Below are positions 1 to 30,282 of a stretch of 64,000 nt of DNA, piece after piece. Location: the NCBI GenBank assembly GCA_965214705.1, contig OZ243972.1:96001-160000 (forward strand), in the 5' to 3' direction. Source of the stretch: Alphaproteobacteria bacterium. Lineage in GTDB: Bacteria; Pseudomonadota; Alphaproteobacteria; UBA828. How positions within the stretch are numbered: the first letter of the stretch is position 1; the number at the start of each line of letters is the position of its first letter. The notes under the pieces were generated by a model. The model saw only the letters and a list, made by a program, of their open reading frames with translations. It had not been told where the DNA came from and did not search any database. The position numbers were made by a program, and so were the translations under genes.

Positions 1-274
1 TGAACACCGCCGGCACCTGGAACTTGCGACCGATCCCGTGCTTCACGATCCGGTGCTCCGGCAGGCCCGTGATTTCGCGCCCCTGGAACATGATCTTGCC
101 CGCCGTCACCTTCTGACGGCCGGTGATCAGGTCCATCGTCGTGGTTTTGCCCGCACCGTTCGGCCCCAGCAGGCAGCGCAGCTCGCCCTCATCGACCTGG
201 AAGCTGAATTCGTCGACGACCTTGTACTCGTCGTAGGCCTTGGTCACCTCCGTGACTTCCAGAATCGCGCTCAC
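1..274 (-). CDS. urtD: ABC transporter ATP-binding subunit, UrtD/LivG-like (runs off the window edge)
   Basis: Manual translation from GTG at 274 gives MSAILEVTEVTKAYDEYKVVDEFSFQVDEGELRCLLGPNGAGKTT, which contains Walker A. GGAGG RBS; follows urtC. Confidence 0.75.
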   Translation of the reverse strand, partial: MSAILEVTEVTKAYDEYKVVDEFSFQVDEGELRCLLGPNGAGKTTTMDLITGRQKVTAGKIMFQGREITGLPEHRIVKHGIGRKFQVPAVF

Positions 275-286
275 GCCCGCGTCCTC

Positions 287-1438
287 CTAGTCCGACGCCC
301 GCCGGGGGCCGAGGGTCGGCTGAACCGGCGCGCTGCCGCGATAAGGAACGAGGCCGATGATCATTTCGAACAAGCCAGCAATTCCCTTCGGCAGGAAGCG
401 GACGACGACGATGAAGATCGTGCCGAGGATCACGAACCAAGCGGCCTGGAACTCGTCGCCCACGTAGCTCTGGATGGTGTTGATGAAGATGGCGCCGAAG
501 ATCGCGCCGAACAGCGAGAGCCTGCCGCCGACGGCGGCCCAGATCACCATGGTGATGCTGAAGAAGATCTCCAGCGACGTCGGCGAGACGTACTGGACGA
601 TCATCACCCAGACGATGCCCGCGATCGCGGCGATGAGGCCGGAGATCGTGAACACCGTCACCTGATAGAAGGCGACGTTGTAGCCGAGGAAACGCGCTCG
701 TTCGGGGTCGTCGCGTATCGCCTGAATTATGGTGCCGAATTTGCTCGCAAGCAGTGCCTTGGTCCCGAGCGTCAGCGCGGCCAGAACACCGAGCGCCACC
801 CAGTAGATCATGCTGCTGTAGGGGTCCACATCGACGCCGAACGCCTGGAACGAACTGGGCGGCGAGATACCGTTGAAGCCCGCCGTGAAAGGCTGCATGT
901 CGTAGGCCATATTGTACCAGGCGCCGAGCATGGCGAGCGTCATGATGGCGACGAAGGCGCCGGCCAGGCGCGCCTGGAACATCAGGAAGCCGAAGATGAT
1001 GAAGAAGAGCGTCGGGATTCCGAGCGCCAGGATCAGCCCGACTTCGGTATGCCAGAAGGGCTCCCAGACCGTGGGCAGCTCCTCCAGCTCGTTGGTCAGC
1101 ATGAAGCTCGGGATCGGGTCGTATTCCGGATCCTGGTACTGCATCTGCATGGTGGCGCCCATGCCGTAGGCCGCCATGCCGAAGGCGATTCCCTGGCCCA
1201 GGCTGAGGATGCCGCCAAAGCCCCACACCAGGCTCACCGAAAGCGCCAGCATGCCGAAGACGCCGTAGCGCGCGAACTGGTTGAGCGCGAAGGGGTCGTC
1301 GCCCATGAACACGGGGATGGTGGCGAGCGCGCCGAAGGCGACGACGTACATCGCCCACTGCGCGCGCTTGTCGTGATAGAGGTTCTGCCGCTGCCCCGTT
1401 GGCTCCAGTTTCAACCTTTCCAACAACATGACGTTCAC
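287..1438 (-). CDS. urtC: Urea/amide ABC transporter permease, UrtC/LivM-like
   Basis: Hydrophobic protein with LSVSLVWGFGGILSLGQG, AIRDDPERARFLGYN and VIWAAVGGR motifs. The start may be ATG 1429. Confidence 0.8.
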   Translation of the reverse strand: MNVMLLERLKLEPTGQRQNLYHDKRAQWAMYVVAFGALATIPVFMGDDPFALNQFARYGVFGMLALSVSLVWGFGGILSLGQGIAFGMAAYGMGATMQMQYQDPEYDPIPSFMLTNELEELPTVWEPFWHTEVGLILALGIPTLFFIIFGFLMFQARLAGAFVAIMTLAMLGAWYNMAYDMQPFTAGFNGISPPSSFQAFGVDVDPYSSMIYWVALGVLAALTLGTKALLASKFGTIIQAIRDDPERARFLGYNVAFYQVTVFTISGLIAAIAGIVWVMIVQYVSPTSLEIFFSITMVIWAAVGGRLSLFGAIFGAIFINTIQSYVGDEFQAAWFVILGTIFIVVVRFLPKGIAGLFEMIIGLVPYRGSAPVQPTLGPRRASD

Positions 1439-1444
1439 CCTGCC

Positions 1445-2347
1445 CTAGCGCCGCGCCATGCTCGGCGCAAAGATCCCCTGCGGACGGAAGCGCAGGAAGA
1501 TCACGATCAGGATGAACAGCACGAAGCGGGCGAAGGTGTCGTTCGTGAAGTAGGAGAAGATTGAGAACATCTCGCCCATGATGCCGGCTGTCGCCAGGCT
1601 GCCGAATAGCTCGCCGCCGCCCGTCACCACCACCAGGAAGGCCTCGACCACGTAGCCCAGCCCCATGTCCGGGAAGATCGTCTTCAGGCCCGCGAACATG
1701 GAGCCCGAGATTCCCGCGAGGCCCGCCCCATAGGCGAAGGTGAGGCCGTACACCCGGCTCGAATTGATGCCGAACGACGCCGCCATCTGCGGGTTCTGCA
1801 TGACGGCGCGAACCTGGATGCCGATATTGGTCTTGAACAGGATCGCCCACGTCATGGCGACCAGCGCCAGTGCCGCGAAGAAGATGAAGATCCTGATCCA
1901 CGGCACGTGGACGAAGTCGATCGTCATCACGCTGGTCAGCCAATCGGGTACCTCGACGTATTGCGGCTCGCCGCCGAAGATCAGCCGGATGCTCTGGATG
2001 AAGACCAAGGATACGCCCCATGTCGCGAGGAGCGTGTCCAATGGTCGGTCGTACAAGTGTCGTATGAGGCCCCGTTCGACCAGCCATCCGATGAAGCCGA
2101 CAAGCACGAAGGAGATCGGCAGGCAGAGCAGCCAGGGGAACCCGCCGAAATACTGCATCATCCAGGTGAAGTAGGCCCCCAGCATGATGAACTCGCCATG
2201 GGCCATGTTGATGACGCCCATGGTGCCGTAAATGATGGTCAGGCCCAGCGCCGCGACCAGCCAGATGCTGGCCAGGCTGAGCCCGATAATCAGCGCATTA
2301 ATGAACGGTTCTGCGGCGAAGGGTGTCCAGAAATCGTGGACGCTCAT
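1445..2347 (-). CDS. urtB: Urea/amide ABC transporter permease, UrtB/LivH-like
   Basis: ALGLTIIYGTMGVINMAHGEFIMLGAY and RPLDTLLATWGVSL are typical UrtB motifs. Confidence 0.85.
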   Translation of the reverse strand: MSVHDFWTPFAAEPFINALIIGLSLASIWLVAALGLTIIYGTMGVINMAHGEFIMLGAYFTWMMQYFGGFPWLLCLPISFVLVGFIGWLVERGLIRHLYDRPLDTLLATWGVSLVFIQSIRLIFGGEPQYVEVPDWLTSVMTIDFVHVPWIRIFIFFAALALVAMTWAILFKTNIGIQVRAVMQNPQMAASFGINSSRVYGLTFAYGAGLAGISGSMFAGLKTIFPDMGLGYVVEAFLVVVTGGGELFGSLATAGIMGEMFSIFSYFTNDTFARFVLFILIVIFLRFRPQGIFAPSMARR

Positions 2348-2454
2348 GAATTGAGTCTCGCCTCTCTCCCTGTTGCGGTCCTGCCGGCAGTGGCCCGCGG
2401 GTGCGTGCCCGTGAAGTCAGCCGGCCGCCGCCTTCCTCCCCCGCCGGGGAACGA

Positions 2455-2483
2455 CGGGGCGGAGGAAATGCCCCTCCGCCCCG
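2455..2483 (-). terminator. GC-rich hairpin after the substrate-binding gene (terminator or mRNA stabiliser)
   Basis: CGGGGCGGAGG-aaatgcc-CCTCCGCCCCG, a perfect 11-bp stem with no clear U-tract. Confidence 0.45.
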
Positions 2484-2507
2484 ACACTACCAGATCGAAC
2501 AGGTCTC

Positions 2508-3851
2508 TTACAGAACGTCCTTCTGAACAGTCCCGTCGGGCCGGTGCAGGCCGTCGGCCTTGCAGACACCGCGCTCGGGATAGATCGCGAAGGGATCCGG
2601 CCCGACGTGCTCGTCGGCCTGGCGCACGATGGTGAACTGACCGTCTGCACCGCACTGGCCGATCTTGGGCTTGAGCCAGATGTTGAAGTTGTCCGGATCG
2701 ATCCAGACCTTGCCCTCCGGGCTCTCCTCGTCGCTGAGCGTCACCGGGCCCTGGTCGCGCCAGTTACCGCTGACGTCGCGGATCATGCGCGGCGTGATGG
2801 CTTCCCAGTCGCCGCCGGTCTCCTCGAGGGCGCGCTCGACACCCTTCTTCCACACGTAGATCCCGAGATAGGTCTCTTCCATGTTGTAGTGGGTGACGCC
2901 CCCGCCGCCGTACTGGCTCGAGAGATAACCCTCCACGAACTTCTCGTTGGTCGGGTTCTGCAGGGTCTGGAAGTAAGGCGCAGACAGGAAGTGACCGGCG
3001 CCGGCCTCGTTGCCCATGGCGCGGGTCTCGATCTCACCGGTGGTAAGCGATGCGATCGGCGTCTTGTCGGACTTGAAGCCCTCTTGCAGGAACTGCCGGT
3101 GCAGCGCGATATCGGAGTCGCCAACCACCGTCGACATGATCCAGTCCGGCTGCTGCTGGCGGATCTTGTTGAAGACCGGTGCGAACTCGGAGCCGCCGAG
3201 GGGGATGTAGTCCTCGCCCAGCACCTCGCCGCCGGCCCGCTCCAGCCAGACCTTGACGTTCTTGTTGGACTCTTTCGGCCAGATGTAGTTGGAGCCGACC
3301 AGATAGGTCTTGGGGCCGAAGTTCTCCACCATGAACGGAACCAGGTCATACGAGTGCTGATTGGCGAGCGGCCCGGTGTTGATGATGTTCTGCATGCACT
3401 CCCGGCCTTCGTAGCAGGTCGGGTAGTAGTAGAGGTGGTCCCACTTCATCACGATCGGCATGACCGCACGCCGGCTCGCCGAGGTGTAGCTGCCGTGGAC
3501 CGAAACCACGCGGTCGCGGAGAATGAGCTGCGTGATCTTCTCCGAGTAGACCTTGATGTCGGACTTGGCGTCGACCACCACCGGCTCGACCATCTTGCCG
3601 GCGATGCCGCCTGCCGCGTTGATCTCGTCGACCGCGTAGAGCGAGACCTGGGTCGAATCGTTCTCGACAACCGAGAGGTTGCCGGTCTGCGACCAGAGCA
3701 TGCCGACCTTGATGGGCTCGTCTTCGTAGATCCAGGGCTTCGCGCCCCAGGCCTGCCCAAAGTCCTTGATGTAGATGTGGGGGAATGCAGCCGCGACACC
3801 GGCAGTTCCCGCCAACGCTCCCTTGAGGATGGTACGTCGGTTGACACGCAT
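2508..3851 (-). CDS. Periplasmic substrate-binding protein, UrtA/AmiC/FmdD family, with Tat signal
   Basis: N-terminal NRRTILKG twin-arginine motif; GSYTSASRRAVMP, YYPTCYEG and LVGSNYIWPKESN. First gene of the urt-like operon. Confidence 0.85.
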   Translation of the reverse strand: MRVNRRTILKGALAGTAGVAAAFPHIYIKDFGQAWGAKPWIYEDEPIKVGMLWSQTGNLSVVENDSTQVSLYAVDEINAAGGIAGKMVEPVVVDAKSDIKVYSEKITQLILRDRVVSVHGSYTSASRRAVMPIVMKWDHLYYYPTCYEGRECMQNIINTGPLANQHSYDLVPFMVENFGPKTYLVGSNYIWPKESNKNVKVWLERAGGEVLGEDYIPLGGSEFAPVFNKIRQQQPDWIMSTVVGDSDIALHRQFLQEGFKSDKTPIASLTTGEIETRAMGNEAGAGHFLSAPYFQTLQNPTNEKFVEGYLSSQYGGGGVTHYNMEETYLGIYVWKKGVERALEETGGDWEAITPRMIRDVSGNWRDQGPVTLSDEESPEGKVWIDPDNFNIWLKPKIGQCGADGQFTIVRQADEHVGPDPFAIYPERGVCKADGLHRPDGTVQKDVL

Positions 3852-3947
3852 AGTAGAACTCTCCCTTGGTTTCTCCCGATGCTCTCACCCCGAGGGGCAG
3901 CGCACGGACCGCCGCCGCTGTGACGACAGGATGTGTCCGTATCCGCG

Positions 3948-3977
3948 ATAGTCTCTCCCGTTGAACGATAATGTCAA
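3948..3977 (-). promoter_or_regulatory. Putative sigma70 promoter of the urt-like operon
   Basis: Minus-strand TTGACA at 3977-3972, then a weak -10 (GAGACT/GACTAT) after 16-18 nt. Confidence 0.4.
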
Positions 3978-4131
3978 CAGAGTGACAAGCCATTCACGAC
4001 ATTTACGAAATTCGGGTTACTCGGCTACGAAATTCGTAGCCGGCCCCAAGTCTACGGACGGTTGCGTTCTACCCCCTCAATTGGAATCATTGGCTCCAGC
4101 CGGCCACGGCGGCGACGAGAGGAGCAGGGCC

Positions 4132-4263
4132 ATGAACCCGAAAGCCAAGCGCATTCTTCAGCTCTGCGCCGACAACGTGTTCTGGGTTTTCCTGGCCCTG
4201 ATGATCATCCTCGGCTCCGCCATGGAAACGCCGATGATCAACGTTGGCCTGACCGCCCGCTGA
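4132..4263 (+). CDS. Putative 43-aa small membrane protein
   Basis: GAGAGGAG RBS before the ATG; MNPKAKRILQLCADNVFWVFLALMIILGSAMETPMINVGLTAR has one hydrophobic helix. Confidence 0.5.
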   Translation: MNPKAKRILQLCADNVFWVFLALMIILGSAMETPMINVGLTAR

Positions 4264-4351
4264 GCGCAGCACGCGTCGGCAGGACCAAGGGCCGGAGCAG
4301 CGCCACGCGAACAGAAAAGCGCCCCATCGTCCGCACTCGACGGCGGACACG

Positions 4352-5623
4352 ATGAACCGACGGGCGAGACGACGGCAGTCGCGGCAGTCGGCGGCCGGCC
4401 CCCGCGCGGGCGACAAGGGTGTCGCGCACGGGGACGTCCTCGCCCGCGCCGCGCGCCACATGAAGGAAGGCCGCCCACAGAGGGCGGACCAGCTCCTCTC
4501 GAAGCTGCTGGCGGGGGATGGGGCGGCCGATCCCAGCGTCCTCCACTATGCCGGCGTCGCCCGCTACCGCTGCAGCCGCTTCGACGAGGCCGCCGCGCTG
4601 CTGCGCCAAGCGACCGAGGCGGCGCCCACCTATGCGGAGGCGCACAACAGCTTCGGCATCCTCCTGCTCGAGACCGGACAGACCGCCGAGGCCCGAGACG
4701 TGCTGGAGCGCGCCGTCGCGCTCCGACCCGACTACGCCAACGCCCATACCAATCTCGGTAATGCGCTAAGCGAGTCCGGCATGGGCGAAGAGGCGGTGGC
4801 GGCCTACCGCAAGGCCATCGCCCTCGACCCCTACGACCTGCAGGCGCATCACCGGCTCGCGCGGACCCATCTCGCCCTCGGCGCGGTGGATCGCGCCCTG
4901 GCCGCCTGCACCACCGCACTCGCCATTGACCCCTTCTGCCAGAACGCGCTGGCAACCCACGCGCTCGCTGAGCAGATCGGGGGCGATTGCGACGCCGGCA
5001 GCAAGCTCTACGATTTCGACCGCTTCATCACCCGGATTTCCCTCACGCCGCCACCCGGCAGCGGCGACATCGAGACATTCAACGAAGCGCTGGCAACCGC
5101 CGTTCGCGAGGCGCCCTCCCTGGTCTGGGAGCCGCCCAACCGCGTGACCCGCAACGGCGCGGTGACCCAGGACATGCTGGCTGCGCCGAGCCCACCCATC
5201 CGCAGCCTGGAGCGCGCACTGCGCGCCGCCATCGACGCCTACAAGGAGACGCTGACGGCAGACCCGGAGAGCCCCTTTCTCGCCCGTATCCCCCGGCGCT
5301 ATCGCCTCACGCTGATCGCCTCGATCCTCACGGCCGGCGGGCGTCACCCGCCGCATATTCACGAGAGCGCATGGCTGAGCGGGGTCTATTACGTCGCGGT
5401 GCCGCCACAGATCGGTGCCGAGAGCGAAGACCACGGCGGTTGGCTCGAGTTCGGCCGTCCCGACCACGACCTGCCCGAAGGCAGCACGTTCCGTTGCGTC
5501 AGCCTCCCACCGCGCGCCGGCACCGCGCTGCTCTTCCCGTCTTACATCTTTCACGGGACGCTGCCCTTCGACGGACCGGGCGAGCGCATCGGCATCGCCT
5601 TCGACGCCTACCCCGAGCCGTGA
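4352..5623 (+). CDS. TPR-repeat protein with C-terminal putative 2OG-Fe(II) oxygenase domain
   Basis: TPR-like repeats (YAEAHNSFG, YANAHTNLGNAL); C-terminal HPPHIH..WLSGVYY..FPSYIFHGT..RIGIAFD. Confidence 0.8.
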   Translation: MNRRARRRQSRQSAAGPRAGDKGVAHGDVLARAARHMKEGRPQRADQLLSKLLAGDGAADPSVLHYAGVARYRCSRFDEAAALLRQATEAAPTYAEAHNSFGILLLETGQTAEARDVLERAVALRPDYANAHTNLGNALSESGMGEEAVAAYRKAIALDPYDLQAHHRLARTHLALGAVDRALAACTTALAIDPFCQNALATHALAEQIGGDCDAGSKLYDFDRFITRISLTPPPGSGDIETFNEALATAVREAPSLVWEPPNRVTRNGAVTQDMLAAPSPPIRSLERALRAAIDAYKETLTADPESPFLARIPRRYRLTLIASILTAGGRHPPHIHESAWLSGVYYVAVPPQIGAESEDHGGWLEFGRPDHDLPEGSTFRCVSLPPRAGTALLFPSYIFHGTLPFDGPGERIGIAFDAYPEP

Positions 5624-5761
5624 GGCCGCGGTGGATGCCCACCTCGGCCGGCAGCGCCCACACCGCATGGCGTTTCGTCGAGAACCGGCTATAACACGGG
5701 GCGAATCGGCCGGGCGGTGCCGCCCGATGCCGGTGGTGGAGCGAGCGGGCTTCTGACCTCC

Positions 5762-6820
5762 ATGACGGATTCCACCGACTTCAAGGCGCTCATCGGGCGT
5801 GTCGCGACCGGCGCGTCGCTCACGGTCGACGAATCGCGCGCCGCCTTCGACGCGATGATGGAAGGCGCGGTGACGCCAGCGCAGATGGGCGGCTTCCTCA
5901 TGGCGTTGCGGGTGCGGGGCGAAACGGTGGACGAGATCACCGGCGGCGCACAGGCCATGCGCGCCCGCGCGCTCAGCATCGACGCGCCGGAGGGCGCCAT
6001 CGACACCTGCGGCACCGGCGGCGATGCGAAGGGTACCTTCAACATCTCGACCGCCGCAGCGCTGGTCGCCGCGGGCTGTGGCGTGCCCGTCGCCAAGCAC
6101 GGCAACCGGGCGCTCTCCTCGCGCTCAGGCTCGGCCGACCTGCTCGCCGCCCTAGGCGTGACCATCGACGCCAACATGGCGCTGGTCCGGGATGCCTTGT
6201 GGGAGGCCAACATCGGCTTCCTCATGGCGCCCCGGCACCACGGCGCCATGCGCCACGTCGGGCCCACTCGCGTCGAGCTCGGCACGCGCACCGTCTTTAA
6301 CTTGCTGGGCCCGCTCTCGAACCCGGCCGGTGCCAAGCGCCAGGTGATCGGCGTGTTCGACCCCAAGTGGGCGCGTCCGATGGCCGAGGTATTGCGGAAT
6401 CTCGGCTCCGAGCGTGTCTGGGTCGTCCACGGCAGCGACGGCACGGACGAACTCACCACCACCGGCCCGTCCACCGTGGTCGAGCTCGACGGCAGCGCGA
6501 TCCGCCGCTTCGAGGTCGCGCCCGAAGACGCCGGCTTACAACGGGCTGCGCCCGACGACCTGAAGGGCGGCGATCCGGAGACCAATGCCGGCATCGTTCG
6601 CGGCGTGCTCGCCGGCGAACCCGGCGCCGCACGCGATATCGTGCTGCTCAATGCCGCCGCTGCGCTCGTCGTCGCCGGGCGCGCGGACAACTTGCGGGAG
6701 GGAGTGCGCACGGCCGCAGAGGCGGTCGACGGCGGCAGGGCCCAGGCCGCACTCGACCGGCTCGTCGAGATCAGCGGCCGGGGCACGCCCGCCAAGGCTC
6801 AGGGCGGCATCGGCCGATGA
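5762..6820 (+). CDS. trpD: Anthranilate phosphoribosyltransferase
   Basis: [16 protein letters not shown] and [15 protein letters not shown] motifs; ATG at 5762. Confidence 0.95.
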
Positions 6821-7647
6821 GCGACGTTCTCGCGAAGATCTGCGATGACAAGCGGCATCACGTCGCCGCCCGCAAGCGGGCCGTCTCCCAGGCGGCGCTT
6901 GCCGATCGGGCGCTCGCCGTCGAACCACCGCGCGGCTTCGCCCGGGCGCTCGCCGCGGTCGCCGACACTGGGCGGCCGGCGCTCATCGCCGAGCTCAAGA
7001 AGGTATCGCCGAGCAAGGGCTTGATCCGCGCCGACTTCGACCCGCCCGCTCTGGCCACCGCTTACGCTGCCGGCGGCGCGGCCTGCCTCTCGGTGCTGAC
7101 GGACAGGGACTACTTCCAGGGCGAGGACCGGTTTCTCACGGAGGCGCATGCGGCGGTCTCGCTCCCCGTGCTGCGCAAGGATTTCATGCTCGACCCCTAT
7201 CAAGTGGTCGAAGCGCGGGCGCAGGGCGCGGACTGCATCCTGCTCATCATGGCCGCCCTGGAAGACGGCCAGGCCGCCGAGCTCGCGGCGGCGGCGGCGG
7301 AGCTCGGCATGGACACGCTGGTAGAGGTCCACGACGAGCCCGAGCTCTCTCGGGCGCTCCGGCTCAAGGCTTCCCTGCTCGGCATCAACAACCGCAACCT
7401 GAAGACCCTCGAGGTCGATCTCGCCACTACCGAGCGCCTCGCACCGCTCGCGGTCGACGGGCCGCCCATCGTCTGCGAGAGCGGCCTGCACGGCCCCGAC
7501 GACATCGCGCGCATGGCGGCGCTCGGCGTGCACCGGTTTTTGGTTGGCGAATCGCTCATGCGGCAGACCGATGTTGCGGCGGCCACGGCAGCGTTGCTCG
7601 CGCCTGTCTCCGGCGCTGCATCGGGCGCAAGAGCGGCAGAGGCCTGA
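6817..7647 (+). CDS. trpC: Indole-3-glycerol phosphate synthase
   Basis: [22 protein letters not shown] and GINNRNL motifs; ATGA overlap with trpD. Confidence 0.95.
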
Positions 7648-7650
7648 GCG

Positions 7651-8127
7651 ATGGCGCGGCTCACTCACATCGACGAAGAGGGCAAGGCGCGCATGGTGGA
7701 CGTGACCGAGAAGGAGGTCACCGAGCGCCGGGCCACGGCACGGGCGCGGGTACTGATGAAGCCCGAGACCGTGCGCCTGATCGCGGAAGGCGGCGTCGCC
7801 AAGGGCGACGTGCTGGGCGTCGCCCGCCTGGCCGGCATCATGGCCGCCAAGCGCACCGCCGATCTGATCCCGCTCTGCCATCCGCTCGCGCTCAGCGCCG
7901 TCGACGTGACGCTCGCCTGCGACGAGGCGGAAGGTGCCGTCGATATCGAGGCCAGCTGCCGCACCACCGCGCGTACCGGAGTCGAGATGGAGGCGCTGAC
8001 CGCCGCGAGCGTCGCCGCACTCACCGTCTACGACATGTGCAAGGCCGCGGATCGCGGCATGCGCATCACCGACGTGCGGCTCACCCACAAGACGGGCGGC
8101 CGGTCCGGCGAATTCAAGGCGCCCTGA
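7651..8127 (+). CDS. moaC: Cyclic pyranopterin monophosphate synthase
   Basis: [15 protein letters not shown] and YDMCKA motifs. Confidence 0.95.
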
Positions 8128-8130
8128 GCG

Positions 8131-9348
8131 ATGATTCCGGTCGCAGAGGCCGTCGCCCGCATCACCGCCGCATTTTCGCCGCTGCCGGCGGAGACCGTGC
8201 CGCTCGCCACAGCCCACGGCCGCGTGCTGGCAGCGGATGTCGTCGCTCGCCTCACGCAGCCGCCCTTCGCCGTCTCGGCGATGGATGGCTACGCGGCGCG
8301 CGCCGCCGACGTGGCGGACCCGCCCGTCACACTGCGCCAGATCGGCAGCGCGCCGGCCGGCGCGCGCTTCGAGGGCACGGTCGGCCCCGGCGAGACCGTG
8401 CGAATCTTCACCGGCGCCCCGGTGCCGGACGGCGCCGACACCATCGTAATTCAGGAGAACACCGAGGCCGACGGCGATGCCATCGCCGTACGCGCGGGCG
8501 CGCCGGCGGGCCGCTACATCCGCCCGGCAGGGCTCGACTTTCGCGCGGGCGAGGTGGGAGTCCCGGCAGGACGGCGGCTGGATGCGCGCGCCATCGGGCT
8601 CGCCGCCGCCATGAACCAGCCGTGGCTCACGGTCCGCCGCAAGCCGCGCATCGCGCTGCTGGCCACCGGCGACGAGATCGTCATGCCGGGCGAGCCGCTG
8701 GGCGCCAACCAGATCGTGAGCTCCAACACCCACGCGCTCAGGGCCGTGGTGGAAGGCTGCGGCGGCGAGGCCATCGATCTCGGCATCGCCCGCGACGACG
8801 AGGAGTCCCTCGTGCGCCTTGCCGCCGGCGCGCGCGGCGCCGACCTCCTGATTACCACCGGCGGCGCCTCGGTGGGCGAGCACGACCTGATCCGCGATGC
8901 GCTCAAGGACGAAGGGCTGGCCCTCGACTTCTGGAAGATCGCCATGCGGCCCGGCAAGCCGCTGATGTTCGGCACCATCGGCCGCACCCACTTGCTCGGC
9001 CTGCCGGGCAACCCGGTCTCGTCGCTGGTCTGCGCGCTGATCTTCCTGCGGCCCGCAATGGCGCGCATGCTCGGCACCGACCAGGGCGCCCAACCCATGG
9101 TTGAGCAGGCAAGCCTCGGCGCCGACGTGAGGGAGAACGACGAGCGGGAAGACTATCTGCGCGCGACGCTCAGCCGCGATGAGAACGGCGCGCTCATCGC
9201 CACACCGTTCGCAAAGCAGGACAGCTCCATGCTCTCGCTGCTGGTGCAGGCGCAGTGCCTCGTGGTCCGGCCGCCCCACGCGCCGGCGGCCGCGCAAGGC
9301 ACGGCGGTGGAGATCATCCCCCTCGAAGGCGGACCACCGGCCCTTTAG
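8131..9348 (+). CDS. moeA: Molybdopterin molybdotransferase
   Basis: SAMDGYA, RIFTGAPVP, TTGGASVG, MRPGKP and LPGNPVS motifs. Confidence 0.95.
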   Translation: MIPVAEAVARITAAFSPLPAETVPLATAHGRVLAADVVARLTQPPFAVSAMDGYAARAADVADPPVTLRQIGSAPAGARFEGTVGPGETVRIFTGAPVPDGADTIVIQENTEADGDAIAVRAGAPAGRYIRPAGLDFRAGEVGVPAGRRLDARAIGLAAAMNQPWLTVRRKPRIALLATGDEIVMPGEPLGANQIVSSNTHALRAVVEGCGGEAIDLGIARDDEESLVRLAAGARGADLLITTGGASVGEHDLIRDALKDEGLALDFWKIAMRPGKPLMFGTIGRTHLLGLPGNPVSSLVCALIFLRPAMARMLGTDQGAQPMVEQASLGADVRENDEREDYLRATLSRDENGALIATPFAKQDSSMLSLLVQAQCLVVRPPHAPAAAQGTAVEIIPLEGGPPAL

Positions 9349-15840: not shown

Positions 15841-16947
15841 CTACCGAGCCACCTGACCCCCGGCGGCGGCAATGTCGGCAAACGCGGGCATGACCTCCCC
15901 AGCAAGCGCGCGCATGGAATCGCGCCACCCTTCCATGTCTTCCAGGTGGTCGTAGGAGATCACCAACAGGGTGCCGAACCCGCCCGAGGCCTCCAACATG
16001 GCGGCGACCTTGCGCTCCACGGTGCGCGGACTGCCCACCGCCATGCAGTGCTCGGCGATGTACTCGACCGTGACGTCGGAATCGGCCACGTCGGGGTGGT
16101 GCTTGCAGGCCGAGAGCATGCCGATGTGCTTGAGCACGGGCAGCCAGAAGCTGCGGTAATGCGCACCGATGGCGCCGTTGACCACCTTGTCCCACGCCTC
16201 GGCGTCGGTCTCAGCCACGTAGATGTCCCGCCCGATGCGCCAGGCAGAGCGGTCCGGGTTGCGGCCGGCCTCCGCCGCGCCGCGCTCGACCGAGGCCCAG
16301 TGCCCGGCGAGGTAGGCGTTGCTGTAGCTCAGGCTGAGCGGAATGAAGCCGCGGCGGCCGGCGAGCACCAGCGTGGGCGAATCCGGGCTGAAGCCGGCGA
16401 TCGCGATCTGCGGGTGCGGCTTGGTGAATGTGCCGATGTGGTACCCGTAGTTCCCATCGAGCACGCCCTCCGGCCGGCGCGCGGTCCAGTACTTGCCGCA
16501 ATACTCGAAGGGGCCGTCGCTCTCCCAGAAGCGCATCATGATGTCGAGGGATTCCTCGGTCATCTCGCGGTTCTGGCCGGCGAACCCATCGATGTCGAAC
16601 ATCAGCCAGTCGGTCGGAATTCCGCTTGAGCCCACCCCGATGTAGCAGCGCCCACGCCCGATATGGTCGAGCCAGGCGATCCGGTGCGCCAGTTCGGCCG
16701 GGTGGTGGAAGGGCAGCATGTAGCCGCCCGGCGAGACCCGGATGCGTTCGGTGCGCAGCAGCGCCTGGGCGACCAGCAGGTCGGGCGCGGGGCAAGGCTC
16801 TGTCGGCACCGTGTAGTGGCAGCCGATCCATGCCTCGGCGAAGCCGATGCGGTCGAGGAAGGCGAGCGTGTCGAGATCGTGCTCGTGGCCCTCGCCGAAG
16901 TCGCGGCCCGGCGGGTGGTTGGGCATCATGAACGCGCCAACATCCAT
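15841..16947 (-). CDS. Luciferase-like (LLM) flavin-dependent monooxygenase
   Basis: GFAEAWIGCH, LPFHHPAELAHRIAWLDH and VGSPRTV motifs. Confidence 0.85.
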   Translation of the reverse strand: MDVGAFMMPNHPPGRDFGEGHEHDLDTLAFLDRIGFAEAWIGCHYTVPTEPCPAPDLLVAQALLRTERIRVSPGGYMLPFHHPAELAHRIAWLDHIGRGRCYIGVGSSGIPTDWLMFDIDGFAGQNREMTEESLDIMMRFWESDGPFEYCGKYWTARRPEGVLDGNYGYHIGTFTKPHPQIAIAGFSPDSPTLVLAGRRGFIPLSLSYSNAYLAGHWASVERGAAEAGRNPDRSAWRIGRDIYVAETDAEAWDKVVNGAIGAHYRSFWLPVLKHIGMLSACKHHPDVADSDVTVEYIAEHCMAVGSPRTVERKVAAMLEASGGFGTLLVISYDHLEDMEGWRDSMRALAGEVMPAFADIAAAGGQVAR

Positions 16948-16994
16948 GGCTCTCCTCCATCCGTTGGCGCTCGCCGGCCGGCGCGGCGGCGGTG

Positions 16995-17756
16995 TTAGAA
17001 CTGCACGCGCTTGGTGAGCCCGCCGTCGACGATCAGGTTGGCGCCCGTGGTGAAGCTCGAGACCGGGCTCGCGAGGAAGGCGACCGCATCAGCGACCTCC
17101 TCTGGCGTGCCCATCCGGCCGGTGGGGTTGAGCGCGAGCGCAGCATTGTAGCGCTCCGGATTCTCCCGCTGACGCTGGCCCCAAACGCCGTCCTCGAAAT
17201 AGATCGTGCCCGGCGAGACGCAGTTCACGCGGATGCCGCGCTCTGCGAGCACGGTGGCCAGATTGGAGGTGTAGTTGATCAGGGCGGCCTTGATCGAGTT
17301 GTATGGTCTGACCCCGCCAAAGCTCTCGACGCCCGCCGTGCTCGATACGGTGACGATCGCCGCAGCCTCCGATTGCTCCAGGTGCGGCATGGCTGCCTCG
17401 ATCGTGCGCACGGTGCCGAGCATGTCGACCTCGAGCGCGGCCCGCCAGGAGTCTTCGTCCGGCGCTCCGGCGATCGCGCTCACGTTGGCGACCACGACAT
17501 CGATGCCACCGAGCTGCTGCGCCATCGCCGCGGTCCATTGCCGCACGGCGTCGCCGTCCGCGACGTCGCAGGCGGTTCCGATGACATTGAGGCCCTCTCC
17601 CGCGAACGCCGCCAGCACGGCCTCAAGCTTGACGCCGCCGCGGGCGCAGATGCCGACCCCGCAGCCCTCCAGCGCGAGCCTGCGCGCGATCGCGTGGCCG
17701 ATCCCCCGCGTGCCGCCGGTTACGATGGCCTTCTTGCCGTCGAGCTTGAGGTCCAT
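16995..17756 (-). CDS. Short-chain dehydrogenase/reductase
   Basis: TGGTRGIG, YNSIK (YxxxK), IRVNCVSPG and VDGG motifs. Confidence 0.9.
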   Translation of the reverse strand: MDLKLDGKKAIVTGGTRGIGHAIARRLALEGCGVGICARGGVKLEAVLAAFAGEGLNVIGTACDVADGDAVRQWTAAMAQQLGGIDVVVANVSAIAGAPDEDSWRAALEVDMLGTVRTIEAAMPHLEQSEAAAIVTVSSTAGVESFGGVRPYNSIKAALINYTSNLATVLAERGIRVNCVSPGTIYFEDGVWGQRQRENPERYNAALALNPTGRMGTPEEVADAVAFLASPVSSFTTGANLIVDGGLTKRVQF

Positions 17757-17831
17757 GTCCTCGACCCTGCGTATGTCCGGTTTGGAGTGTCGGACGCCCG
17801 CACGCGCTTGTCCAGCCGGCGCCGAGCGGTA

Positions 17832-25122: not shown

Positions 25123-25197
25123 CCCGCGTTTCTCGCCAGGGTCGCGTCCCACGCGGCCTCGCCCGTTCCCCGGTGGGACAGGCAAACAATAATTTCA

Positions 25198-25381
25198 TGC
25201 GGGACGAGCCGGGATCATGCGGGATTCCCGGCGACAACCGCTCGCCGAGATGGTGTTCGATGGGACAGCAGCCGGGCACATCCAACTTGCTGTCCACACC
25301 TGCCACGACCCGCCCGCGCCTGCTCATCATGGCGCCATCGTGACGCGCCCGCCGCGCGCCGTGCAGCGCACCATGGTCCGG
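25198..25381. mobile_element. Miniature gene-less relative of the DUF3486 locus
   Basis: Carries 10-bp-phased units TGCGGGACGA/GCCGGGATCA/TGCGGGATTC and the 21-mer GTGCAGCGCACCATGGTCCGG, shared (20/21) with 28724-28744. Confidence 0.55.
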
Positions 25382-26918: not shown

Positions 26919-27629
26919 CTACCAGGGCAGCTCCCTGCCGTCGTACTGATAGAAGCAGCCGGTCTGGCCGCTGCCGTAATTCGCCACCACCTGGCGGATG
27001 CCGGCGATGCTCTGCTCCTTGTTGACAGGGGCCTCGGGCCCGCCCATGTCCGTGCTCACCCAGCCGGGATGGACCGCGATGGTGCGCACCCCGCGCGGTG
27101 CGAGATCGATGGAGAGCCCTTTCACCACCAGATTGAGCGCCGCCTTGCTGGAGCGGTAGGGATAGAGGCCGCCGTCGGCGAGCTCGGTGATGCAGCCCAT
27201 GTACGTGGACATGAAGAACATCAGCTTCATGTCGCTCGCCGCGACGTGATCGACGAAGGCCTCGGCAACCCGGAGCGGCGCCATGGTGTTGATCTCGTGC
27301 AGCTGCATCCAGGCTTCGTAGTCGACCGAGCCGAAGGCGCCCGGCCCCATTGAGTCGATCGTGCAGCCCAGCAGGCCCGCGTTGTTGACCAGCATGTCGA
27401 TGGCCGTGCCGCGAAGCTCGTCCGCCAGCGCCTCGATCTGCGCGGGCTTGCCCACGTCGAGGGTGTGCAGCGTGATCGCGCCGTCCGACTGAGCGGCGAG
27501 CGCGGCGAGATCGGTGGCCGTCTCGGGCGCGCGGCAGCAGGCGTAGATGCGCCAGCCGTCGTCCAGGAATTGGCGCACCATTTCGAGGCCGAGCCCTCTG
27601 TTCGCACCGGTGACCAGCATCGACGGCAT
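26919..27629 (-). CDS. SDR oxidoreductase (C-factor/CsgA-like)
   Basis: TGANRGLG, NNAG, YRSSKAALN and HPGWVSTDMGG motifs. Confidence 0.9.
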   Translation of the reverse strand: MPSMLVTGANRGLGLEMVRQFLDDGWRIYACCRAPETATDLAALAAQSDGAITLHTLDVGKPAQIEALADELRGTAIDMLVNNAGLLGCTIDSMGPGAFGSVDYEAWMQLHEINTMAPLRVAEAFVDHVAASDMKLMFFMSTYMGCITELADGGLYPYRSSKAALNLVVKGLSIDLAPRGVRTIAVHPGWVSTDMGGPEAPVNKEQSIAGIRQVVANYGSGQTGCFYQYDGRELPW

Positions 27630-27732
27630 GGCTCAATCCCTCCCTTGTCCCTGAGCGGCGGCAGAATAGCGGACCCCGCCCCGCCGACAAGAGCGAAGCC
27701 TTGCGGGTGCAGCCTTACGGGCGAAGCCCCAC

Positions 27733-27874
27733 CGCGCGCGGCAGCGGACACGGAGTTTGCCACAATGGGGACCGGGCTGCGCAGCAGCCCGGAGCGCGCG
27801 ACCGCGCGCCGCGCCGAAGGCACGTAAGCCAAGCGAACGGAGTTCGCGCCCGGCGACTGAGGGGAATCAATAAA
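27733..27874. repeat. Multi-hairpin repeat, family A copy 1 (3' side of the DUF3486 gene)
   Basis: Aligns in direct orientation with 28820-28960. Confidence 0.85.
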
Positions 27875-27885
27875 GCACCCGCGCC

Positions 27886-28692
27886 TCACTCCGGCCCGAG
27901 TGACAGGATCGATGTGGGGCTGGTGCGAAACACCCGCGGAGCGATTTCCGTCCAGGATTCATAGCGATGATCCGGGCTCAAGTGGGATTCGCCGGGATCA
28001 GGTGGGATTGCGTGAGATTCGTCGGGATTGACCGGGACTGCGGGGAACTCTGCGGGATTCCACGGGTCCACCGGCACCGACGTGACGGTGCGGGGAGCAG
28101 GCGGGGGCGGCGGGGGCCTGCCCTCCACCTCCGCGCGGATGATGGCGACCGCCTCCGGCGAGAGCCCGCCCTGATCCTTGGGCTGGCCGGCGCGTGCCGC
28201 CTTCTTCGCCGCCCGCTCCCGGTCTTTGCGGAGCTTGTCGGTGCCTTCGATGCGCTTGAGGGTGAGGGCGAGGCGGGCGAGCTCCTCCGTCGACACGGGC
28301 TCTTCCCGCGCGCTGAGACGAGCCATGGTGGCGAGCGCCATCGTCCGCAGGGTCTCGATCAGGATGAGTCCCGCCTGGCCCTCCGGCCGTTCGCCCAGCG
28401 CGTCCACCCACGCCTTGATGGTGCGGTCGGTCTCCTGCTGCTGGCGGATCAGGTCGCGCTCGTTCTTGGCGTAGCGGCCGACGGCCGAGCGCGAGCATGT
28501 CTCGCCCTCGGCCCGGATGCGGGCGGTGATCTGGTCGATGGTGGCGCCGTCCGCGATGGCCTGATCGACGGCCTCGCGCAGCTTGGCCGGCAGGCGGTCG
28601 ATGGAGGAGCGGCCGAACGTCCCGGCCGTTGTGCTCTTGGGGGGTTCAATTTGCATGGCGTGGCTGTGCTCGCGGGTGGTGTTGTGGCTCAT
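27886..28692 (-). CDS. DUF3486 / phage Mu gp27-family protein (probable terminase small-subunit homolog) with Pro-rich C-terminal extension
   Basis: RSSIDRLPAKLREAVD...ATIDQI...SRSAVGRY and C-terminal GLSPEAVAIIRAEVEG are characteristic of Mu gp27-like proteins. Alternative ATG 28656. Confidence 0.8.
   Translation of the reverse strand: MSHNTTREHSHAMQIEPPKSTTAGTFGRSSIDRLPAKLREAVDQAIADGATIDQITARIRAEGETCSRSAVGRYAKNERDLIRQQQETDRTIKAWVDALGERPEGQAGLILIETLRTMALATMARLSAREEPVSTEELARLALTLKRIEGTDKLRKDRERAAKKAARAGQPKDQGGLSPEAVAIIRAEVEGRPPPPPPAPRTVTSVPVDPWNPAEFPAVPVNPDESHAIPPDPGESHLSPDHRYESWTEIAPRVFRTSPTSILSLGPE
27951..28070. repeat. 10-bp-period tandem array (consensus nnnGGGATTn) inside the DUF3486 gene 3' end
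   Basis: Consecutive decamers: tccaggattc atagcgatga tccgggctca agtgggattc gccgggatca ggtgggattg cgtgagattc gtcgggattg accgggactg cggggaactc tgcgggattc cacgggtcca. Confidence 0.9.
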
Positions 28693-28768
28693 CCGGCGAT
28701 GCTGCCCCACGCCGCCCCTCCCTGTGCACCGCACCATGGTCCGGTTTCTCTCCCCGGCAGCCAACGAA

Positions 28769-29056
28769 GCGTTTGCCCTGATGGGACCGGGCCGCGCAGC
28801 GGCCCGGTCGGCGCGACAGCGCCGCGCGGAAACAGACAGAGTGTTTGCCATGTGTGGAGCCAGGCTGCGGAGCAGCCTGGAGCGCACGACCGCGCGCCGC
28901 GCCGAAGGCGCGTAGGCAAGCGAACGGAGTGAGCGCCCGCCGTTGAGGGAAACGAAAAAGTGCGAGCGCCCGGCAATTGAGGGAAATGATTAGGTCAGGT
29001 CCGGAGCGCGCGACCGCGCGCCGCGCGCGCCTGGCGTCTGAGGGAAATGAATAAAC
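28769..29056. repeat. Cluster of family A repeats: full copy ~28820-28960 plus partial copies ~28769-28816, ~28961-28990 and ~29001-29056
   Basis: Recurrent GTTTGCC..hairpin, GGAGCGCRCGACCGCGCGCCGCGC and TGAGGGAAA motifs. Confidence 0.85.
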
Positions 29057-29105
29057 TAGCGCGCGCCGCCCGGCTTGCCTATGGTGCGGAATCGGTTCGC
29101 CGAGA

Positions 29106-29182
<77 letters not shown>

Positions 29183-29433
29183 TCCTACCGTCACCTTCTC
29201 CATGCTGCCGCTGGCGCCGTGCGCTCGATGACGCGGCGGCCTCGGCCATCCTGGCGGTCATTGAGGGCGTCGGGCGGGACGACCAGCGGCATCGACGCCG
29301 GCGCTACGCGCGCACGGCCTAGTGAGTGCTTGCCATCCTTCGGCACTCGCACTTGACAACGGTCCCACCACCGCAGCTAGAAGACGGGTTCCCACCACTT
29401 CCACCTGAACGCTGACCCCCAGACCATCTTCAA

Positions 29434-29494
29434 GTGCAACGGCTAGCGCAGGTGCAGGCAGCGCAACCGCGTCGCGTGGCGCCAGCTGTTAGAC
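29434..29494 (+). other. Degenerate attC-like (integron cassette recombination) site
   Basis: GTGCAAC...GTTAGAC ends with an imperfect stem AACGGCTAGCGC/GCGCCAGCTGTT; 61 bp long, 38 bp before a low-GC ORF. Confidence 0.35.
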
Positions 29495-29532
29495 AGACGA
29501 GGGCGGCGGAATGATAAGACAAGGTCACTGGA

Positions 29533-30282
29533 ATGAATCAAGTGCCCCCATCAATCCATGAAACCGCCTTTGACTGCCCTCACTGTGGGGCGTTTGCGCA
29601 GCAGTCTTGGTTTTCGCTCACAGCGAACACAGAATACATTAGAGACAGACTTCCCATTGATGTCAGAGAATATGTTTTTCCTAATGCGGTTAATAATCAG
29701 CCGGCAATTCGCGATGCCGTTTTGGAGGGGTTTCCCGCTCTAAATCCTGTACGGAGCCAACCGGCATCTGCAACATTGTATTGTGTGTTTATTTCTAGTT
29801 GTTTTCGTTGCAAGAAAGTCGCAATTTGGATAGGCGACAACCTGATCTATCCGCAGAGCCGTGTGGCTCCTCCTGCAAACCCTGACCTCACAGGTGAAAT
29901 CCGTGAAGACTACGACGAAGCCAGTAGTATTTTGGATTTATCACCTAGAGGGGCGGCGGCACTTCTTCGACTCTCTATTCAAAAACTCTGTAAAGAACTC
30001 GGGCAGCCAGGAAATAACATTAACGACGACATCGCGGCGCTGGTTTCAGCGGGTTTGAGCCAACAGATCCAGCGGGCCCTGGATACGGTACGAGTCATCG
30101 GAAACAATGCCGTCCATCCGGGTCAGATTGATCTTCGCGATGATAGGGCAACTGCGCTCAGTTTGTTCACATTTGTTAACCTGATCGTAGACAAGATGAT
30201 ATCCGAGCCTAAGCGTGTCGCAGAAGCTTATAATAACTTGCCTGAAAGTGCGCGAGACGCAATCAAGGAACGTGATGCGTGA
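29533..30282 (+). CDS. DUF4145 (HEPN-like) protein with N-terminal Zn-ribbon cysteines; low-GC, probably acquired
   Basis: CPHCG and CFRCKK; DYDEASSILDLSPRGAAALLRL; RVIGNNAVHP (R-x6-H). Visibly AT-richer than its flanks. Confidence 0.8.
   Translation: MNQVPPSIHETAFDCPHCGAFAQQSWFSLTANTEYIRDRLPIDVREYVFPNAVNNQPAIRDAVLEGFPALNPVRSQPASATLYCVFISSCFRCKKVAIWIGDNLIYPQSRVAPPANPDLTGEIREDYDEASSILDLSPRGAAALLRLSIQKLCKELGQPGNNINDDIAALVSAGLSQQIQRALDTVRVIGNNAVHPGQIDLRDDRATALSLFTFVNLIVDKMISEPKRVAEAYNNLPESARDAIKERDA

Follow-up and report, generated by a model that had tools for sequence, protein, structure and literature searches.

We analyzed a window of 64,000 nucleotides (contig OZ243972.1, positions 96,001 to 160,000) from an alphaproteobacterial genome, which we call G000. 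On its minus strand, the window has a gene for a small terminase-like (TerS-like) protein of the Mu gp27/DUF3486 family. We are highly confident that this gene belongs to a real, conserved, multi-copy unit of Mu-like phage origin, in which a TerS-like gene is coupled to an array of short phased repeats; that the unit has gene-less derivatives; and that it is found in genomes that keep a large terminase (TerL) and a portal protein. As to its role, we give a probability of roughly 0.5 to our reading that the unit is a dispersed system of TerS and pac-like recognition sites that feeds the retained TerL. An earlier note on this DNA had suggested either a stand-alone TerS with a pac-like site, which would hijack or jam the packaging of Mu-like phages, or a domesticated DNA-wrapping protein in a small, spreading unit. 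The anatomy fits a stand-alone TerS with a pac-like site that is spread in the form of a small unit; the hijacking or jamming of phages is a hypothetical role. The note's interpretation as a whole is partly supported.

The window's open reading frame (ORF) matches Phage_Mu_Gp27 (PF11985) with 88.4 bits (E = 9.6e-25; the curated cut-off is 28 bits), which bears out the note's assignment to DUF3486. The match spans residues 19–179 of the 256-amino-acid form of the protein and positions 1–171 of the 173 in the profile. The protein also matches PHROG 426, “terminase small subunit” (E = 5.8e-30). Besides the start at 28692, there are alternative starts at 28656 (256 amino acids, MQIEPP...) and at 28737 (283 amino acids; this start is within the box described below, and it is the form in the protein database). 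We prefer 28692 because an ATG lies 46–47 nt beyond the conserved box in 28 of the 32 copies of the box. The orphan TerS-like proteins carry a low-complexity extension of 70–90 amino acids. The best identities of the window's protein in plasmid and phage collections are 36.5% and 37.6%, so it has no close relative there. The gene is indeed alone, as the note had it: of the 36 ORFs called in the window, none has a match at E ≤ 1e-8 to families of capsids, terminases, portals, integrases, or transposases (12 of the 36 have no match at all).

G000 (three contigs, including C1 and C3; 7.92 Mb, 67% G+C, 98.5% complete) has nine matches to PF11985, of which eight are above the cut-off, and all nine are orphans. 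Five of the other copies are 80–91% identical to the window unit over 781–1165 bp of DNA. A terminase or portal gene adjoins none of the nine, and the 91 ORFs that lie up to 8 kb from the eight other copies include no head, tail, terminase, or portal families. The neighbors of those copies are housekeeping genes, some insertion sequence (IS) transposases, and (at two of the eight loci) a tyrosine integrase. The neighbors differ at all nine loci. We also searched for PF11985 in 20 other genomes of the genus and in 20 genomes from outside it, and found it in 17 of the former (1–15 matches per genome) and in one of the latter. (Other genomes of the genus are labeled G002–G018 and so on, and L numbers are extracted loci.) At E ≤ 0.001, the protein database has 849 relatives. 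Few of them bear a name, which is “DUF3486 family protein”; these come from metagenome-assembled genomes (MAGs), most of which are labeled Rhodospirillales and one Deltaproteobacteria. A scan of species genomes found 30 loci, all from uncultured MAGs (labeled Alphaproteobacteria, Rhodospirillales, Defluviicoccus, and once Vicinamibacteria). Given the multiple copies and the conserved array (see below), we can exclude the possibility that this gene is the single-copy last remnant of a decayed prophage.

The family of units is restricted to this uncultured genus. The anatomy of the unit emerges from an alignment of the six close copies in G000 and 43 copies from nine relatives. It is about 0.8–1.2 kb long, has one ORF, and consists of the box, the TerS-like gene, an array of 3–18 units that begin with (A/T/G)TCCC, and a variable tail (Table 1). 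The six copies from G000 have three classes of tail, which diverge just past the array. The 16-nt core of the box occurs 35 times in G000, while 1.4–1.9 occurrences are expected. The consensus of the box runs on to a hexamer (CA..AT) ahead of the ATG, and the box and hexamer could be a −35/−10 pair with a leaderless start. It is the conservation of the box that suggests a promoter: a scan of 27700–29100 for the sigma-70 consensus found none. We also considered that the stretch from the box to the start codon might form a hairpin, but dropped this idea, as alifold on 32 box regions gave just a 4-pair stem inside the box.

On the minus strand, the motifs of the window's array start at 28058, 28047, 28038, 28028, 28018 (degenerate, ATCTC), 28008, 27998, and 27988. 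TRF reports periods of 10 (score 34) and 20 (score 62), so the internal, 10-bp-phased array of the earlier note stands. At least three ATCCC motifs at exact steps of 10 bp occur five times in G000, while the other spacings of 7–15 bp give 0–1 occurrences. Orphan copies share the array as well as the upstream 21-mer, a possibility that the note had raised; the 21-mer is the box (28744–28724). Specifically, 40 of the 42 close copies (at least 60% identity) have at least three phased motifs; of the 173 steps between motifs, 132 measure exactly 10 bp. Among the ten more distant copies, two have the array. Both are from G003 (54% amino acid identity), and both have it past the stop codon. We conclude that the array is an element of the DNA, because it lies past the stop in G003, because a 10-bp unit is not a codon repeat, and because the ORFs end at variable points in or beyond the array. 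The variable ends also imply that the C-terminal tail of the protein is largely read-through.

In their behavior, the arrays resemble variable-number tandem repeats. At 28001, exactly 30 bp of the window's array are missing from a contig of an RNA library. Metatranscriptome contigs of relatives, from coral and sponge libraries, include fragments of the unit that are 85–99% alike; such contigs cannot show transcription, and DNA may have been carried over.

Three of the five strict arrays in G000 are away from any PF11985 gene, and two of those three have the box, an ATG, 100–150 nt of degenerate sequence, and then the array. Also, 8–9 copies of the box outside of PF11985 loci have phased motifs 100–260 nt downstream. 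The window itself has a gene-less miniature, between a Ppx/GppA gene and a tRNA-Leu. This site (25381–25175) is occupied in nine relatives and empty (70–122 bp) in six, and the size of its array (25175–25230; L083–L098) ranges from about 3 units in G000 to about 13 in G013 and about 20 in G009.

We noticed other elements with the box. A second class has the same 21-mer and ATG with a different 3' repeat, which is translated as ..GPPWA/TTLxHLGP.. and has GGNCCACCTTGG-like DNA; examples in G000 are at C1:986387, C1:1162307, C3:1029683, C3:1050374, C3:2775952, and C3:2851323. At C1:2166968 (+) is an internally deleted relic of the clade of PF11985 genes that lack the array: the box is followed by a start that is joined to the C-terminal third (..LALVMHRIEGAGKS..GGLPPEDVAIIRAEVEG..). 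At C3:2897529 (−), the box is followed by a 162-amino-acid ORF of unassigned family. The DNA just past that box (C3:2897535–2896027) matches a stretch of G003 that is 0.6–2.9 kb upstream of its TerS-TerL pair. The ORF may be another retained phage gene.

G000 has a single Mu-type portal gene (PF06074, E = 9e-88), and directly upstream of it is a 470-amino-acid TerL (Terminase_6C). The pair is placed between a region with pyruvate carboxylase and a ParE-family toxin and an unrelated gene. The genomes that carry units keep one gene of each. By DNA search, the pair is present in most of the genus, and it was not found in G011, G015, and G016, which are the three genomes without PF11985. In G003 and G018, TerL and portal are apart. 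The Mu-like origin is clear because, in G003, a divergent PF11985 gene is still directly upstream of the orthologous TerL. We compared these proteins across 12 relatives (full-length TerL could be aligned in 11, and portal in 11). The ratio of nonsynonymous to synonymous substitution rates (dN/dS) was 0.17–0.32 for TerL (10 pairs) and 0.09–0.23 for the portal (11 pairs), with dS of up to 0.5. These alignments indicate that both are under purifying selection. Not all of the genes are intact: TerL of G008 (L127, C3:298900–308600) is split at about residue 337 by an insert of about 5 kb, and the extracted sequence for TerL of G004 (L119) has an in-frame stop, so it was left out of the dN/dS analysis. 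The system may be decaying in some lineages. We also noticed a copy of the box between TerL and portal in G000, with a 17-codon ORF that overlaps the start of the portal gene.

AlphaFold (AF2) gave a model of the TerS-like protein with a mean predicted local distance difference test (pLDDT) of 66. The model has a helix-turn-helix (HTH) at residues 18–65, with pLDDT above 90; helices at 56–89, 95–116, and 123–156; a short conserved helix at 167–178; and a disordered tail. We also modeled a complex of TerL from G000 (with a 12-row alignment) and the window's TerS-like protein (with the 39-row alignment that was used to assess conservation). The interface score (ipSAE) was 0.68, versus 0.01 for the best of three controls. 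The mark used for such models is reached by 116 of 157 solved complexes and by 2 of 215 mismatched pairs, although these counts are a rough guide because we used custom alignments. Across runs, contact agreement was at least 38% and the pLDDT of the partner was at least 55. In the modeled interface, residues 163–180 of the TerS-like protein, which are nearly invariant, face residues 24–35, 57–67, 95–106, and 121–124 of TerL. So, the model supports, in silico, binding of the TerS-like protein to TerL. Similarly, a review describes the C-terminus of TerS as binding the N-terminus of TerL in lambda and P22 (PMC9611059).

How do the units come and go? The earlier note had proposed to look for empty sites in related genomes, and this check came out in its favor: units are present or absent at orthologous sites between genes, and relatives have clean empty sites. 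Both flanks of nine of the relatives' 43 copies map to occupied sites in G000, and both flanks of six map to clean empty sites. At one site, G004 and G013 have 870–1128 bp inserted, relative to G000, between convergent genes. This insertion has GGGTTAG(C) on its left and GGGCTA(A/G)C on its right, which is a possible target duplication of 7–8 bp with one mismatch, from a single event. At two other insertions, the junctions replace 10–19 bp. G000, G006, and G017 (dS of about 0.1) share all of the sites that we examined and thus give no indication that units moved recently. A search for exact ends, comparing G004 to G013, found flanks that were rearranged or unmatched. Two miniature loci, followed across the genus, were at synteny breaks or had variable content. 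The C3:2005k site, which we aligned in six genomes, is the same intergenic site, with junctions that are too diverged to read. We also noticed that, in G004 (C1:2316419–2339407), the two flanks of the unit at L073 of G013 are 21 kb apart and inverted, and that, at the L128 miniature (G000 C3:1887400–1889500), the box is exactly where homology to G006 and G017 sets in. The elements at L073 and L128 lie at rearrangement breakpoints.

In a tree of 51 PF11985 domains, the copies with arrays form one group of 41. The six copies from G009 and the six from G008 form their own clades, the nine from G004 and G013 form a joint clade, and those of G000, G006, and G017 are mixed. Site C3:2005k is occupied in five of those clades. 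Furthermore, dS among the paralogs in G000 is 0.08–0.13, compared to 0.28–0.39 for same-site copies in G008, G009, and G005. That paralogs are closer than same-site copies, and that copies group by genome or lineage and not by site, suggests gene conversion, or else turnover at preferred sites. Of 52 domains, 51 are free of stop codons. Across 27 pairs of TerS-like genes, dN/dS was 0.28–0.91 for 23 pairs within the array clade (mostly 0.3–0.5) and 0.14–0.30 for 4 pairs of a clade that lacks the array.

We propose a Mu-like phage's packaging module as the ancestor of the family. The TerS-like protein would form oligomers and would read the array beside its own gene, and miniature arrays in trans, as a pac-like site. 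The conserved TerL would be recruited via the C-terminal helix of the TerS-like protein and would then cut, or start DNA translocation, at the array. As we found no capsid gene, packaging would need a helper that we do not see, and the particles would come from an infecting Mu-like phage. (There are such prophages in the genus. Locus L068 of G012 has a lysozyme-like gene with an SLT domain, PF11985, and TerL, and G002 has three portal-bearing regions.) The outcome would be that host DNA is packaged and transferred from many starts in the chromosome, or that a phage's packaging motor is diverted.

Several considerations weigh against this proposal. Its functional steps (binding, cutting, and packaging) are hypothetical. 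We link the TerS-like protein to the array, as its putative pac-like binding site, from their co-location and by analogy. According to the same review, specific binding of TerS to pac has been hard to show in vitro, even in model phages (PMC9611059). The related prophages do not help: in six prophage-like regions of G002 and G012, whose TerL proteins are 47–69% identical to the orphan TerL, there is no box and no phased array within 14–20 kb, and the canonical TerS-TerL pair at L068 of G012 has neither. Thus, the array does not look like a copy of any known phage's pac site. Since the related prophages lack the array and the TerS gene of the nearest sequenced phage has no room for it, the array is either an innovation of the orphan clade or from an unsampled phage. 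As for capsids, G000 has no matches to PF10124, PF04233, or PF05065 (the Mu gpT, Mu F, and HK97 families), which are the capsid families that we searched for.

The protein evidence against it is as follows. The complex model's passing score may reflect likeness to solved terminase complexes. Using the model of the TerS-like protein, Foldseek found no match in PDB at E ≤ 0.001 (a chain of P74-26 TerS was at E = 1.5), and VIA-align found generic helical hairpins only, with Z up to 8.1, and no small terminases. Thus, the fold comparisons neither support nor exclude a TerS fold. (A profile search of PDB sequences with the TerS-like protein gave nothing below E = 0.085, and neither the PADLOC models of anti-phage defense systems nor NCBIfam have a family for it, for TerL, or for the portal.) The dN/dS of the TerS-like genes, at 0.3–0.6, is relaxed for a strongly constrained protein. 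Finally, the co-occurrence of the units with TerL and portal is probably due to one ancestral event and does not count as independent support, and G015 has a partial match to Portal_Mu, by family search, without PF11985.

The units can be compared to several known systems. Like Mu gp27 and PF11985 proteins of phages, the TerS-like proteins have a predicted N-terminal HTH and then helices, they belong to the same sequence family, and a C-terminal segment is predicted to bind the N-terminus of TerL. In the phages, a gene of about 177–180 amino acids has a stop that overlaps the next gene (the position of TerL), and the portal follows, as in Chromohalobacter phage YPCBV-1 and at L068 of G012; given the overlap, TerS of YPCBV-1 has no room for an array. 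In contrast, the orphan units are multi-copy, lack TerL or portal beside them, and have the C-terminal extension, their own box, and the phased array. Phage satellites of the SaPI/PICI type (Staphylococcus aureus pathogenicity islands and phage-inducible chromosomal islands) carry their own TerS, which redirects the helper's packaging. Our units resemble them in having a host-resident TerS homolog without its own capsid, so that packaging would be possible only with a helper's particles. Unlike them, the unit has no integrase, att sites, or replication or repressor genes; it is 1 kb instead of 5–15 kb; it is present in many copies; and TerL and portal are single genes elsewhere. Gene transfer agents (GTAs) are domesticated phages that package host DNA, and they are not known to use sequence-specific start sites. 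As with GTAs, packaging genes are inherited vertically and are under purifying selection in a bacterial lineage, whereas here specific arrays are conspicuous, no capsid gene was found with the three families above, and no cluster of tail or lysis genes was found.

The units also resemble pairs of autonomous elements and miniature inverted-repeat transposable elements (MITEs), as well as REP-RAYT systems (repetitive extragenic palindromes and their associated transposases): gene-bearing and gene-less versions share ends, they are dispersed among intergenic regions, and a short repeat (family A, see below) is associated with them. But the units have no transposase fold, we noticed no inverted terminal repeats, and one end is a tandem phased array. 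As for pac signals, those of P22 (in gene 3) and SPP1 are, like our putative sites, within or beside a TerS gene; the review places pac inside the TerS gene of P22 and, for lambda and P22, within or beside the TerS gene, and it describes multiple contact points in the pac of SPP1 that flank the cut site (PMC9611059). By comparison, the putative sites of our units are in the chromosome, there are dozens of them, their 3–18 decamers vary in number between species, and gene-less copies are among them.

We also considered that the unit might be a selfish, mosaic mobile element of a non-canonical transposable or recombining kind, whose box and array ends are cis sites, whose TerS-like HTH is an end-binding factor, and whose miniatures are non-autonomous, with no benefit to the host and no packaging; the RNase-H-like nuclease of the retained TerL may be the cutting enzyme. 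This would explain why the two ends are common to versions with and without the gene, as in pairs of autonomous elements and MITEs; the discrete insertions with clean empty sites and one candidate target duplication; the range of 1–15 copies among species; the synteny breaks at L073 and L128; and the relaxed dN/dS. However, the unit has no transposase or recombinase domain (the TerS-like ORF matches no transposase families), we noticed no terminal inverted repeats, the target duplication is a single event, and the sharing of all examined sites by G000, G006, and G017 speaks against recent hopping. Nor would it explain purifying selection on the portal. We consider a selfish element unlikely. 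A bolder version of our own proposal seems similarly unlikely: a capsid-less system for initiating packaging that is spread over the chromosome, with its own TerS (in many copies), TerL, portal, and dozens of “pac” arrays, by which host DNA would be packaged, headful by headful, into procapsids supplied by a Mu-like phage. If true, one could regard this as a satellite that has dissolved into the chromosome or as an incipient GTA; its effect would be to move host genes, to deprive the phage of capsids, or both.

Another explanation is that the TerS-like proteins are domesticated DNA-binding proteins with no link to packaging, such as a regulator or nucleoid organizer that acts on the arrays, with the box as a promoter and with TerL and portal kept for other reasons. 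Confidence in the model is highest for the HTH, the arrays and boxes are intergenic and beside housekeeping genes and tRNAs, and the second class of box elements, with its different 3' repeat, suggests a wider network driven by the box. Against this are the near invariance of the helix that is predicted to contact TerL, and its score as an interface in the model. Also, the differing neighbors mean that there is no conserved target gene, and a regulator rarely needs 6–15 near-identical paralogs. We find this explanation quite improbable. Inert debris, in which remnants of decayed Mu-like prophages were multiplied when segments were duplicated or when dispersed repeats recombined, is disfavored, and we give it very little credence. 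It would account for the clear origin from a Mu-like packaging module, as seen in G003, and these genomes are rich in dispersed repeats. But nearly all of the domains are intact, dN/dS is below 1 for all 27 pairs, the array and box are kept at fixed distances down to 54% amino acid identity, the duplicated segments comprise the unit alone and never flanking phage genes, and TerL and portal have been under purifying selection to dS of about 0.5.

Family A repeats accompany most of the units, and the earlier note had seen them as direct repeats that flank the gene on both sides. The repeats are real: 27735–27829 and 28823–28917 are direct repeats with 80% identity across 95 nt (blastn gives about 82% across 133 nt), and the 30-mer core of family A occurs twice in the window, with none expected. 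But they are not the unit's own brackets. G000 has family A at 39 places, of which 30 are away from PF11985 genes. A copy is just upstream of the box at six of the nine PF11985 loci, and both-side bracketing is seen only at the window's copy. An A-type end opens the inserted DNA in two of three independent insertions. At the site of the window's unit, between a short-chain dehydrogenase (SDR) gene and tRNA-Arg, G002, G003, and G011 have no repeat (171–185 bp); G008, G005, and G009 have one A in the same orientation as in the window; in G004 and G013, the single A is reversed; G006 and G017 show the window's order of A, gene, and A; and four further spacers are 547–884 bp. G008 and G005 have the SDR gene, the A copy, and tRNA-Arg without the TerS-like gene. 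The alignment to G008 continues through window position 27873, at 93% identity, and spans the copy on the SDR side, so that copy was resident and the other was brought by the unit. We therefore rejected family A as the terminal repeats of the unit: 30 of 39 places are apart from PF11985 genes, the repeat occurs in either orientation at the same site, and the SDR-side copy is orthologous to the solo A of G008. From these alignments, family A is an independent dispersed repeat, which often travels with the unit.

The note was also correct that the gene is near a tRNA-Arg, but this adjacency is incidental. We considered targeting of tRNAs and rejected it: none of the eight other loci in G000 adjoins a tRNA, and the nearest, a tRNA-Lys, is about 3 kb away (L017). 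Other neighbors in the window include a type III-like glutamine synthetase, the SDR gene, and a DUF4145 gene, and the window also contains dnaA, dnaN, and gyrB. A scan of 27000–30000 with Rfam found only the tRNA. The DUF4145 gene, which is beyond the tRNA-Arg (29533–30282, plus strand) in a stretch with lower G+C, matches the single-gene anti-phage defense system PD-T7-4 (E = 7.8e-80); a small island has probably formed here at the tRNA. At 38–9297 are five long ORFs that were called from codon bias and that have no match in Pfam at E ≤ 1e-8; they may be mis-called frames or unfamiliar genes.

Table 1. Positions of the unit, its parts, and associated features. Positions are within the window, except for the TerL-portal pair.
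Feature	Position	Strand	Comment
Full ORF matching PF11985	27886–28887	−	Full open frame
TerS-like (Mu gp27/DUF3486) gene	27886–28692	−	268 amino acids; ATG 47 nt past the box core
21-mer box, CCGGACCATGGTGCGGTGCAC	28724–28744	−	Promoter-like module; common to all close copies and gene-less miniatures
Codons for C-terminal helix, residues 163–180 of the 256-amino-acid form (GGLSPEAVAIIRAEVEGR)	28157–28210	−	Nearly invariant in the alignment of 39 TerS-like sequences; predicted contact with TerL
Phased array	27984–28058	−	8 units of 9–11 bp, each starting (A/T/G)TCCC, one degenerate
Variable 3' tail, class I	27886–27983	−	Common to 2 of the 5 other close copies in G000; the frame passes through by default
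Gene-less miniature	25175–25381	−	Box, ATG 46 nt on, spacer of ~100 nt, 3–4 (A/G)TCCC units, conserved AAATT..GTTTGCC tail
Family A, downstream copy	27735–27875		Resident solo copy, outside the unit
Family A, upstream copy	28823–28960		Accompanies most units
Partial family A module (hairpin and GGCAAAC part; family D1)	28783–28828		Between the upstream A and the box
Two further copies of the 31-nt A-terminal module (..GCCCGGC..TGAGGGAAATGA..; family D3)	28962–29053		
tRNA-Arg	29106–29182	+	
Orphan TerL and Mu-type portal pair	G000 C3:1236981–1239770 (L037, 14981–17770; TerL at 16358–17770)	−	No other phage genes and no adjoining TerS

In the literature that we searched (on DUF3486, orphan small terminases, and Mu gp27), “DUF3486” appears in the context of a phage genome, and we found no published description of dispersed orphan small-terminase units among the matches listed. 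Small terminases are known as single genes in phages, satellites, and GTAs. Here, a TerS homolog forms a multi-copy chromosomal unit with a promoter-like box and a helically phased array, alongside single-copy TerL and portal genes that have long been kept without a capsid. Annotators should not call lone “DUF3486” genes in these lineages prophage remnants. Should the units prove to be selfish, terminase parts would form the basis of a mobile element in place of a transposase. If the arrays are where packaging starts, then they would be a natural, repeat-based pac site, which could make it easier to study how TerS recognizes DNA, and the units would represent a new means by which chromosomal DNA is transferred at high frequency, or by which phage assembly is disturbed.

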